From Treponema sp. (GTDB taxonomy: Bacteria > Spirochaetota > Spirochaetia > Treponematales > Breznakiellaceae), in contig JAIRNA010000097.1 in assembly GCA_031258305.1 (NCBI GenBank), positions 1-63,226 of the forward strand: DNA of 63,226 bases, in the 5' to 3' direction. The translations under genes were made by a program, and so were the position numbers. Positions 60,591-63,226 of the stretch are shown piece by piece; position 1 is the first letter of the stretch; each line of letters begins with the position of its first letter. The notes beneath the pieces are model-generated. The model had not been told where the DNA came from. It saw only the letters and a program-made list of their open reading frames with translations, and searched no databases.

Positions 60591-63226
60591 ATGAACACGT
60601 CTAACCACACGGCGGCATCGTACCAGCGACGGTTTAAGACTTCGTATCAGGAAGGAGGGATTAGCGCTTCGGCTATCTGGGCGGGCGCTTATTTCTGCCT
60701 GCCGATGTTTATGGTCGGGGGGCTTCTGCAAAACGGGCTCCCGCTGGGCGCCGTCGTCGTCTGCGGGCTTGCCGGCTTCGGCATTGTGGGGCTTTATTCC
60801 TGCGTTGTCGGTATGCAAAGCAACGACACCGGACTTACCATCCATTCGGCCGCGGCGGCCGCGATGGGAAGCGTCGCGGCGCAAATCATCACGAGTATGC
60901 CCATAGCCCTCACCTCCATAGGATGGTACGCGATACAAGCCGTAACCCTAGGATCGGGCTTCAGTGCGGTCTTCCGCTCCTTTACCGGTGTCGCGCTCTC
61001 TCCTGCAGTCAGCACCCTCATCTGGGGATCGGTAACCGGTCTCATAGCCATGGGCGGCTACCGTTGGATGAAATACTTTGCCTACGTGTCGCTTCCCCTC
61101 TGTGCGGGGATACTCATATACGCCCTCGTCTCCATCTTCTCTGACGGAGTCTCGGGGGGAGGGGGCATCTGGAGTTACCGCCCCATCCAGAATATACCGA
61201 TGCTCTCGGGGATCAGCACCGTGGTCGCCGCCTGCGCCCTCTCCGGCGTTATGATCGGGGATATTTTTCGGCATTGTAAAACGCGGGCGCACACTGCCGC
61301 CGCCTGCGTCTGCACCGTCGCCATACAGACGACGGTACTGTGCATAGGCGCCGCCCTTGTTATCGCAACCGGACAGTGGGACCTTACCGCGCTCTTGACA
61401 GGGCGCGGACACCCCGTGCTTGCCCTTGTCTACCTTATCTTTTCTTCCATTGCCGTCAACCTCACCAACGCCTATTCGGGCGGCGTTGCCGTATCCATGA
61501 TGCTGGGAATCAATGAAGACCGCTTCAAGCTTACCTGCGGGATCGCCTGTAGCATCGGCGTTGTACTGGGCGCGATGGGGATCATGTCCCTTTTTGCGGC
61601 GTTCTTGAGCTTGGTCTCTTCCCTCATCCCGCCTCTTGCCGGTGTCGTCATCGGCTCCTACTGGATACTGGGCAGGGGAAGCAAAGAAGAATTCTTCAAG
61701 ACGCCGGATCGGGACCTTTACCTGCCGGGCCTTATCGCCTTTGCCCTCGGCGCGTTCACTGCCTACCTCACAAGCGCGATTCTGCCCTTCTTCATCCCGG
61801 CCCTGAACGGTCTTGCGGTCTCCTTGTTCTCCTACTGCCTGCTTTCCAAATGGATGGACGATGCGGACGCCTCAAAAAACTTGAGCCTTTCTTCCAAATT
61901 CACCGGAGGCTTTGTCTTTTGCGCCGTCATCACCATTGCCACAGGCGGACTGGGGCTGTCCGCCATACAGGCGCTGACAACGGCGGAGAACGCCGCGCTC
62001 AGCGCGGATCTGACTGCCATGACCGTCATGCTTATGCTCATAGGCGTCGTCCTATCGTTTGGGCTGGGCATTATGTTTACCGGCTTGGTCGTCAAGCCCA
62101 TACGCCATATGTTCAGCCTGCTCAAGACAATCGCCACGGGCGATCTTACGGGGAGCATAGAAAGCGAGAGAAATGACGAGATTGGAGAGATGACGCGCCT
62201 TCTGGAGCGCACCCAGGTTGGTATCAGCGCGCTGATTCTTGCGGTGCGGACAAAGGAGCAGGGGCTTGAACAGGTGGGCAAAGAGCTTACGGTTATGACG
62301 GAGCAGGAAGCGTCCACCGTAGAGCAGGTAAGCGCCAACGCCCAGGACATGAAGGAGAAAGCCCTCGCGCAGGCGGAGAAGGCGTATGAGGTCATGGAAG
62401 CTATGGTTGCCAACATTCAGGCGCTGGACGCTCATATTGAGGAGCAGGCGCAAAGTGTGCTACGCTCCTCCTCTTCCATTGAGGAGATGCTGTCCAATAT
62501 CGGATCCATAACCGCCGACCTTGTGGCGAATCAACGGAATATGAGCGAACTTTCCCTTGCCGCGGAGAAGGGTAGTACGGGCGTTGAAGAAGTAGCCGGC
62601 GCGATAGGGCGGATCGTCTCCGAGTCCGAGCGCCTCCTTGAGATAAATCGCGTGATCCAGCGTATAGTTACCGAGACGAACCTGTTGTCTATGAACGCGG
62701 CTATCGAGGCGGCTCATGCGGGGAACGCGGGCGTGGGGTTTGCGGTTGTGGCATCTGAAATCCGCCAATTGGCGGAGTCGTCAAGCGTACAGGTAAAGAC
62801 CGTCTCTTCCGTTCTGAAAGAGGTAAAGGGTAGCCTTGAAGGAATAGGAGGTTCAGCCCAGAATGTGCTTCGTTACTTTGAAGATATAGACAAGGCGGTA
62901 AAGACAGTCTCTACGCTGGAGGATCATATCCGCCGGTCTATGGAAGAGCAGCACGCCGGAAGTCAGGATATTATCAAAGCCATTTCCCAGTCCCAAGAGA
63001 TCACTCGTAGCGTACGGAGCGGCTCTCAAGCGGTAGTTAGCGGTAGCAAGCGGGATATTGAGCGGAGTAAAGAGGCGCTGACCGCGGACTTAAGCGGCGG
63101 CATGAACGAGATAGCCGCGGGGATAAGCCAGATCAAGTCAGCGATAAACCGTACCAAAGATATAAGCGCGGAGAATAGGCGGAACATTGAAGCGCTTGCA
63201 CACGAACTGTCCAAGTTCCGTACCGG
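60591..63226 (+). CDS. CodB/NCS1-type purine-cytosine permease domain fused to 2 TM + HAMP + methyl-accepting chemotaxis signalling domain (3'-truncated by the window edge, absent from the ORF track)
   Basis: Hand translation of frame 3 from ATG 60591 (GAGGAG upstream) gives 878 codons without a stop. CodB-like blocks: [44 protein letters not shown]. HAMP at ~62094-62216. MCP hairpin tip [35 protein letters not shown] at 62673-62777. Confidence 0.85.
   Translation, partial: [878 protein letters not shown]

Follow-up and report, generated by a model that had tools for sequence, protein, structure and literature searches.

An NCS1 permease domain fused to a chemoreceptor in termite-gut Treponema: a candidate non-transporting chemical sensor

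Introduction

How does a chemoreceptor take in its signal when a complete transporter homologue stands where a ligand-binding domain is expected? This question is raised by a gene at the end of a 63,226-nucleotide contig from Treponema sp. (GenBank assembly GCA_031258305.1, contig JAIRNA010000097.1), the whole of which is referred to here as the window. The gene encodes a CodB/Mhp1-type NCS1 permease domain that continues directly into the membrane hairpin, HAMP domain and signalling domain of a methyl-accepting chemotaxis protein (MCP). A first-pass annotation, made from the letters of the window alone, had proposed a nucleobase transceptor. The analysis described here favours, with a probability of roughly 55%, a chemoreceptor whose input is a transporter-derived, membrane-embedded NCS1 sensor of 12 transmembrane (TM) helices that is probably non-transporting and that would respond to a hydantoin-like or pyrimidine-like heterocycle. 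The label 'nucleobase transceptor' should accordingly give way to 'probably non-transporting, hydantoin-like-ligand sensor'.

To our knowledge, nearly all characterised chemoreceptors sense their ligands via soluble periplasmic or cytoplasmic domains. A complete LeuT-fold carrier acting as the input module would extend the known sensor repertoire of these receptors and would provide a natural covalent system in which a conformational change of a transporter becomes a HAMP/MCP signal, a chemical counterpart of the SRII-HtrII light sensor. Comparison of the fused proteins with their stand-alone permease relatives also pinpoints the changes that accompany the step from carrier to receptor (the Na2 threonines, the TM8 Trp and the TM6 aromatic residue), all of which can be tested by mutagenesis.

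The fusion gene and its domains

Direct translation from the ATG at 60591 of the + strand yields a run of 878 sense codons that reaches position 63226, the end of the contig, without meeting a stop. This confirms the open frame read in the first-pass annotation, including the GAGGAG upstream of its start. Full-length homologues have 868-906 amino acids, and the family alignment ends 3-6 residues past the last codon of the window gene. The gene and its parts are as follows.

60591..63226, + strand: NCS1-2TM-HAMP-MCP fusion gene, 878 codons, truncated where the contig ends, some 3-6 codons short of the stop.
60578..60583, + strand: Shine-Dalgarno-like GAGGAG, 7 nucleotides 5' of the start codon, read from the sequence.
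60651..61850, + strand: NCS1 domain (CodB/Mhp1-type, LeuT-fold, 12 TM), residues ~21-420, from profile matches and alignments.
61851..61898, + strand: short cytoplasmic linker between TM12 and TM13, residues ~421-436, with K420, K429 and K436 and the family-conserved N430, L433 and K436.
61899..62081, + strand: transducer hairpin of TM13 (residues ~437-460), periplasmic loop and TM14 (residues ~475-497), from hydropathy and conservation.
62076..62213, + strand: HAMP domain, residues 496-541, with the canonical proline P503 of amphipathic sequence 1, from PF00672 and alignment to the Tsr HAMP domain.
62214..63226, + strand: MCP kinase-control coiled-coil hairpin, with its tip at residues ~697-724 and a methylation-like motif at residue 662.

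An alternative in-frame ATG at 60576, five codons 5' of 60591 (ATGAGGAGTACAAATATG), overlaps the GAGGAG. Because this codon has no Shine-Dalgarno sequence of its own and the homologues likewise begin with MNT, 60591 is the likely start. A promoter and terminator scan and an inverted-repeat search 5' of the fusion gene returned nothing on the + strand; no search for a sigma-28-type promoter was made.

The signalling half is recognised directly by Pfam. MCPsignal (PF00015) matches residues 656-804 with 86.7 bits against a cut-off of 34.6, and HAMP (PF00672) matches residues 496-541, directly after TM14, with 25.3 bits against a cut-off of 25, a score that is marginal for the window copy in a region that is strongly conserved in the family. 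The hairpin tip aligns with Tsr residues 380-410, each arm comprises about 24 heptads as counted from the Tsr alignment, and a single consensus-like methylation site is located at residue 662. Residues 432-564 additionally match the TM2/HAMP region of the sensory rhodopsin II transducer HtrII (E 3e-4).

The permease half is less readily detected. PF02133, which had been anticipated at residues ~20-420, goes unreported when the whole 878-residue protein is scanned against Pfam; it appears, with 44.5 bits (cut-off 23.5) over residues 26-365, when residues 1-499 are scanned alone, and six of six family members match in this way. The Pfam prediction made at first pass therefore holds, although routine scanning of the entire protein would overlook the domain. 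Since the domain is lost in a whole-protein hmmscan, architecture surveys of that type could undercount NCS1-MCP fusions. The precomputed Pfam lists for family members P0001, P0004, P0005 and P0010 likewise omit PF02133. The NCBIfam cytosine-permease model NF008241 covers residues 18-428 (E 3e-29, 101.9 bits, below its equivalog cut-off of 326), and the CytX and generic NCS1 models of NCBIfam also match, TIGR00800 with an E value of 4.5e-10 that lies below its subfamily cut-off. Searched against the PDB, the fused-family profile finds three matches only, CodB 7QOA (1.6e-31) and two Mhp1 entries (1e-16). The CodB match is near end-to-end, with profile positions 16-424 aligned to chain residues 17-409 of 423.

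Hydropathy analysis resolves 12 + 2 TM segments. The loop between TM13 and TM14 is ~14-17 residues long and free of Lys and Arg, and basic residues cluster at the N-terminus, in the TM12-TM13 linker and after TM14, a distribution that places both termini and the HAMP domain in the cytoplasm. The 14 TM helices and cytoplasmic C-terminus predicted in the first-pass annotation are borne out by this layout, and so is its argument that, with no periplasmic ligand-binding domain present, nothing but the transporter fold can plausibly serve as input. Sequence and inferred fold assign the fused protein to the NCS1 superfamily, and it is also a bona fide MCP.

Distribution and evolution of the fusion

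A fusion seen at the end of one contig could be an artefact in which neighbouring permease and MCP genes were joined by a sequencing frameshift, by the loss of a stop codon or by chimeric assembly. The window lends itself to this suspicion, being a metagenome-type contig with an open reading frame (ORF) that runs off its end, and a related locus (L076) does have a frameshift in the permease part. Several lines of evidence argue against it. A search of 5.8e9 proteins returns about 10 proteins of the same architecture that share 49-73% identity, and the architecture is found in more than 10 independent Treponema contigs belonging to metagenome-assembled genomes (MAGs) from lower-termite guts, at 40-73% identity. 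A scan of 185,579 species, each represented by one genome, identifies seven complete fused genes and several partial ones, without exception in Treponema MAGs. The relatives' MAGs (e.g. Gx485_bin.., Ncb351_bin..) are named by the scheme used for MAGs of lower-termite guts (PMC11707648). Different termite-gut MAGs thus supply at least seven complete and several partial contigs, independent of one another, in which the frame is continuous; the permease-receptor junction aligns without indels across homologues, and purifying selection extends across it. Nei-Gojobori dN/dS values, calculated for four pairs, are 0.15-0.30 in the NCS1, hairpin and HAMP/MCP segments alike, which marks the permease domain as functional, with no decay under way. 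Finally, an MCP is fused to 0/59 of the stand-alone relatives, and no recurrent MCP gene family occurs among their clustered neighbours. On these sequence comparisons an artefactual fusion is excluded and effectively refuted, and the uninterrupted permease-MCP fusion described in the first-pass annotation stands.

Two side observations concern individual family members. The L076 locus (L076:3968-6700) is a second fusion copy in MAG Gx485_bin84, frameshifted after about codon 360 at a Gly (GGG) run, with the remainder read in another frame; the explanation is either that the copy is a pseudogene or that the assembly is in error at a homopolymer. In the Joint Genome Institute (JGI) annotation, P0003, P0004 and P0010 have been given an internal Met (MQSSDT...) as their start, and the ORF extends 5' through TM1-TM2 (L004:4424-4900). 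The true start of these three lies near 'VMPAPSTLPGE...', and their forms of 805-806 residues are mis-called starts and not truncated proteins.

The family appears to be small. An exhaustive profile search of 1.84e9 representatives clustered at 50% identity finds two full-length clusters only, the other top matches sharing the HAMP/MCP half alone; this search is swamped by MCPs (350-520 bits), so that distant, independently arisen NCS1-MCP fusions could escape it. Word-indexed searches with the N-terminal 498 residues and with a mixed profile return family members only, with no stand-alone NCS1 proteins and no other fusions. The species scan, by comparison, also yields more than 60 stand-alone permeases of 420-450 residues and 32-41% identity from Treponema, Sphaerochaeta and many gut Clostridia. 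In a neighbour-joining tree all fused sequences form one long-branched clade that is sister to this stand-alone NCS1 subfamily.

The fused proteins carry automatic annotation only: the JGI product name is 'methyl-accepting chemotaxis protein/purine-cytosine permease-like protein', and at NCBI they are listed as Treponema sp. MAG proteins. Literature searches on NCS1 chemoreceptors, transceptors and transporter-domain or symporter-fused MCPs found no NCS1-MCP described, a key review of sensor domains lying outside the search; within that scope, the earlier statement that no NCS1-MCP has been characterised agrees with what was found. The NCS1-MCP architecture is uncharacterised and taxonomically narrow. 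It is not peculiar to the window, whose gene belongs to a small, auto-annotated Treponema family.

Residue changes in the permease domain

The reality of the fusion leaves the question of what its permease domain does. Key positions are compared in a MAFFT alignment of CodB (7QOA) with 11 fused and 59 stand-alone sequences. In CodB, cytosine is stacked between Trp108 and Phe204 and forms a hydrogen bond to Gln105, and the hydroxyl groups of Thr278 and Thr279, whose Mhp1 counterparts are Ser312 and Thr313, coordinate the Na2 ion (PMC9379551). The Q105A and W108A substitutions abolish transport, T279A markedly reduces it, and both T278A and T279A abolish the Na+-dependent stabilisation by cytosine (PMC9379551). 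The aromatic sandwich (Trp108 and Phe204 in CodB, Trp117 and Trp220 in Mhp1) has been described as family-wide (PMC9379551). The residues at these and adjacent positions are distributed as follows.

CodB Trp108: Trp in 59/59 stand-alone sequences; Trp in 11/11 fused sequences.
CodB Phe204: Phe in 59/59 stand-alone; Cys, Leu, Tyr, Ile or Val in the fused, with Phe or Trp in 0/11 and Tyr in 4/11.
CodB Trp277: Trp in 59/59 stand-alone; Trp in 1/11 fused.
CodB Thr278: Thr in 58/59 stand-alone; Ala, Gly or Ser in 10/11 fused and Thr in 1/11.
CodB Thr279: Thr in 59/59 stand-alone; Val, Ile or Asn in 11/11 fused and Thr in 0/11.
CodB Asn280: Asn in 59/59 stand-alone; Asn in 11/11 fused.

The window protein has C215 at the position of Phe204, I287 at Trp277, A288 at Thr278 and V289 at Thr279, and it retains W112, Q116 and N290; the same residue mapping is obtained in three independent HMMER alignments. 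More broadly, 95 alignment columns are at least 95% conserved in the stand-alone relatives, and 51 of these are retained and 24 lost in the fused clade. Residues that are conserved specifically in the fused proteins cluster in TM8-TM12, the linker, the GGF start of TM13 and the periplasmic loop. Judged by these residues, the fused clade departs from NCS1 carriers in two functional hallmarks, having neither the complete aromatic pair nor the Na2 site, and orthology of the protein to CodB is rejected.

Because the Na2 hydroxyls and other residues invariant in the stand-alone relatives have disappeared in this clade specifically, Na+-coupled uptake has probably been given up, and the protein would serve as a receptor instead of a transporter. 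Taken together with continued purifying selection, the losses fit a domain in which binding and conformational switching are kept and Na+-coupled transport is abandoned.

The same data can also be read as describing a true transceptor, in which the NCS1 domain still transports by H+ coupling or uniport and its transport cycle, whether through flux or occupancy, modulates the MCP. In agreement with this, all 12 TM helices are intact under the dN/dS of 0.15-0.30, the retained columns include the TM10 Ile-Pro-Pro (IPP) gate motif, W112, Q116, N290 and the N293-AYSG motif, and P0026, the deepest fused member, has kept its counterparts of Trp277 and Thr278. Against it, the Thr279 equivalent is present in none of the 11 fused sequences and in every stand-alone one, the equivalents of Thr278, Trp277 and Phe204 are lost as well, and the CodB T279A phenotype (PMC9379551) shows that loss of this hydroxyl alone is costly to transport. 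In the alignment of the fused clade, moreover, the Na2 position is not filled by a basic residue that could compensate. On this evidence a transporting receptor is the less likely outcome, and the flux-reporting transceptor of the first-pass annotation is doubtful because residues that are near-invariant in the 59 stand-alone permeases are lost in the fused clade. The strongest form of the idea, Na+-independent transport within a single polypeptide with chemotaxis reading transporter turnover and not mere ligand occupancy, is unlikely. If true, such a protein would tie uptake flux to taxis directly at the molecular level; 'transport-dependent' or metabolism-dependent chemotaxis is a mechanism that has long been discussed.

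Ligand context

If the domain is a sensor that has ceased to transport, clues to its ligand may be sought in the pocket and in the genes that surround the family. The CodB Gln105 equivalent is Ser109 in the window protein, Ser or Cys across the fused clade and Cys in 59/59 stand-alone sequences, so that neither group looks cytosine-specific. The invariant W112-x3-Q116, which is kept in fused and stand-alone groups alike, aligns with the hydantoin-contacting Trp117 and Gln121 of Mhp1.

The stand-alone permeases belong to a conserved and apparently uncharacterised operon that recurs in dozens of genomes of gut Clostridia, Sphaerochaeta and Treponema (loci L014-L081, e.g. L016:2344-7898). Relative to the NCS1 gene, its recurrent members are as follows.

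Position -1: PucR-family regulator, 39 loci.
Position +1: DUF917 (S-Me-THD-like) protein, 29 loci.
Position +2: hydantoinase-A-like protein, 31 loci.
Position +3: Asp/Glu/hydantoin racemase, 10 loci.

The operon permeases keep all Na2 and stacking residues, and Cys replaces both Gln105 and Phe33 of CodB. Such a setting is catabolic, of the cyclic-amide or hydantoin type. A role of the CytX/TPP (thiamine pyrophosphate) type in thiamine-precursor uptake is unsupported, because Rfam searches detect no riboswitch in 17 stand-alone loci and only a chance-level small nucleolar RNA match around the window gene.

The most likely ligand class, as far as pocket residues and sister-operon context can indicate, is a hydantoin-, cyclic-amide- or pyrimidine-like heterocycle and not cytosine. 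The nucleobase or cytosine ligand suggested in the first-pass annotation is unlikely, given the Ser or Cys at the Gln105 position and stand-alone kin that reside in a hydantoinase-type operon and not beside a cytosine deaminase. The fused family is confined to motile Treponema of the lower-termite gut, and the sister permeases with their hydantoinase-type operon are widespread in gut anaerobes. Identification of the ligand would therefore reveal both a chemoattractant and a substrate of this gut pathway.

The fusion gene itself has a monocistronic appearance and no overall conserved neighbourhood beyond a DUF917-like gene in one subclade. In four of the seven complete fused loci a divergent DUF917-like gene lies directly 5' of the fusion gene. 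On the - strand, the copies at L008:1931-3118, L052:2512-3696 and L010:2501-3640 are intact, and that at L009:2876-3148 is a remnant of 90 residues. These copies are 67-75% identical among themselves, as expected of orthologues, and 26-29% identical to the DUF917 genes of the operon.

This linkage bears on a further possibility, that the permease domain is not the sensor and serves as an anchor, localisation module or docking site, sensing being carried out by the TM13-TM14 loop, the HAMP domain or a partner such as the DUF917-like enzyme. The loop is unusually conserved in the fused family (T463, T464, E466, N467, A469, S471 and D473), the canonical substrate- and ion-site residues are degraded, and the DUF917-like gene recurs as just described. 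A pure anchor, however, would not be expected to keep 51/95 positions, W112, Q116 and N290 among them, at a dN/dS of ~0.2, and a loop of ~14 residues is too small for an independent binding domain. A purely structural role of the permease domain is accordingly quite improbable.

Two further neighbourhoods are recorded as side observations, both of them unconserved elsewhere. In L003, which is on the same contig as L009, trpB and trpA begin 13 nucleotides past the fusion-gene stop (5968-7999), a spacing that suggests co-transcription with the fusion gene. In L001/L008, purE, purC and purF are located ~2.5 kb downstream of the fusion gene.

Proposed mechanism and points against it

For the favoured reading, a non-transporting sensor, the following sequence of events may be envisaged. 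A small heterocycle related to the substrate of the sister operon would enter the NCS1 pocket from the periplasmic side and contact the Trp-x3-Gln motif of TM3 (W112/Q116) and the Asn of TM8 (N290). Binding would shift the conformation of the hash and bundle domains and of the gate helices of the LeuT fold, and this movement could reach the TM13/TM14 hairpin both laterally and through the short TM12-TM13 linker. The receptor dimer would consist of a central four-helix bundle of TM13/14 flanked by two NCS1 domains, in an arrangement like the 2:2 SRII-HtrII complex. TM14 would then drive the HAMP domain and the long MCP hairpin, and thereby control CheA. The architecture and its conservation, the purifying selection, the pattern of residues lost and kept and the gene context of the relatives are observed directly; we infer the ligand class, the abandonment of transport and the path by which the signal is transmitted.

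Several points weigh against this scheme. LeuT-fold carriers that are H+-coupled or that act as uniporters exist, and loss of the Na2 hydroxyls is for that reason no proof of transport loss; 5/11 fused members, moreover, keep a Ser at the Thr278 position. The equivalents of Phe204 and Ala207 vary between fused subclades, a pocket variation that may mean there is no single ligand, and the HMMER alignment places a gap in TM8 around the equivalent of Mhp1 Asn318. The ligand class is drawn from the context of a sister subfamily that is only 32-41% identical, and the DUF917-like neighbour is missing from the window and from L006, L011 and L012. An AlphaFold2 model of the full protein, built from an 11-sequence family alignment, is unusable, with a predicted local distance difference test score (pLDDT) of 41.9 and a predicted template modelling score (pTM) of 0.28.

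Comparison with known systems

The fused protein is homologous to CodB (7QOA) and Mhp1 (2JLN) over the full 12-TM length, and the TM3 Trp, the Mhp1-like Gln at +4, the TM8 Asn and the TM10 proline gate are common to them; it differs in adding a 2TM-HAMP-MCP output and in being without the Na2 Thr-Thr pair, the TM8 Trp and the TM6 aromatic residue. The stand-alone NCS1 subfamily, whose 32-41% identity extends over residues 14-420, shares with it the Cys at CodB Phe33, the Trp-x3-Gln motif and the N-x2-NAYSG motif, but has no signalling domain, keeps the canonical Na2 and stacking residues and is encoded in a catabolic operon.

On the receptor side, canonical spirochaete-type MCPs (e.g. P0028-P0030) match the HAMP and signalling half with 450-520 bits and have the same arm length and hairpin tip. 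These proteins are built as TM1, periplasmic ligand-binding domain and TM2, whereas the fused protein has a loop of ~14 residues in place of that domain and a 12-TM domain ahead of TM13. A parallel to this layout is found in the haloarchaeal SRII-HtrII and SRI-HtrI complexes, where a two-TM MCP-type transducer that likewise lacks a periplasmic domain reads a polytopic partner laterally and passes the signal to HAMP. The differences from SRII-HtrII are that here both parts reside in one polypeptide, the partner is a LeuT-fold permease homologue and not a 7-TM retinal protein, and the stimulus is presumably chemical and not light.

Carrier folds are established as signalling inputs in the SSS-domain histidine kinases CbrA and CrbS, the Amt-histidine-kinase ammonium sensor Ks-Amt5 and the yeast sensors Snf3/Rgt2 and Ssy1, and in several carrier-derived sensors transport has been lost and binding retained. 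Compared with these, the Treponema protein uses NCS1 instead of SSS, Amt, MFS or APC as its carrier fold and an MCP/chemotaxis output instead of a kinase or transcriptional pathway. The fused receptor is real, uncharacterised and limited to one narrow bacterial group, and it is not a new principle.

Genomic surroundings in the window

The window is otherwise ordinary spirochaete chromosome, with rpoB and rpoC at 25.9-34.0 kb and obg also present. The neighbours 5' of the fusion gene are a gene for an LPG_synthase_C protein followed by rimP, nusA, infB and sbcC, and the window contains no homologues of the DUF917, hydantoinase, PucR or racemase genes. A flagellar export and regulation cluster at 35869-44875 encodes FlhB, FlhA, FlhF, a MinD/FlhG-like ATPase and a FliA/WhiG sigma-28 factor, and is closed by a FapA-domain protein of 652 residues with a Jag_N domain. 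The first-pass annotation had likewise noted flagellar export genes ~20 kb upstream of the fusion gene, and its view of the host as flagellated is supported by this cluster. No che gene is present among the ORFs scanned, which comprise 10 of the 25 distinct ORFs of at least 200 residues in 1-35.4 kb and the large ORFs of 35.9-60.4 kb, with the remaining and shorter ORFs left unscanned. Two genes at some distance from the fusion complete the picture: a fused type I restriction-modification methylase/specificity protein (N6_Mtase and Methylase_S) is encoded at 46-2121, and a DUF5312 protein of 587 residues (467 bits) at 11238-13001.

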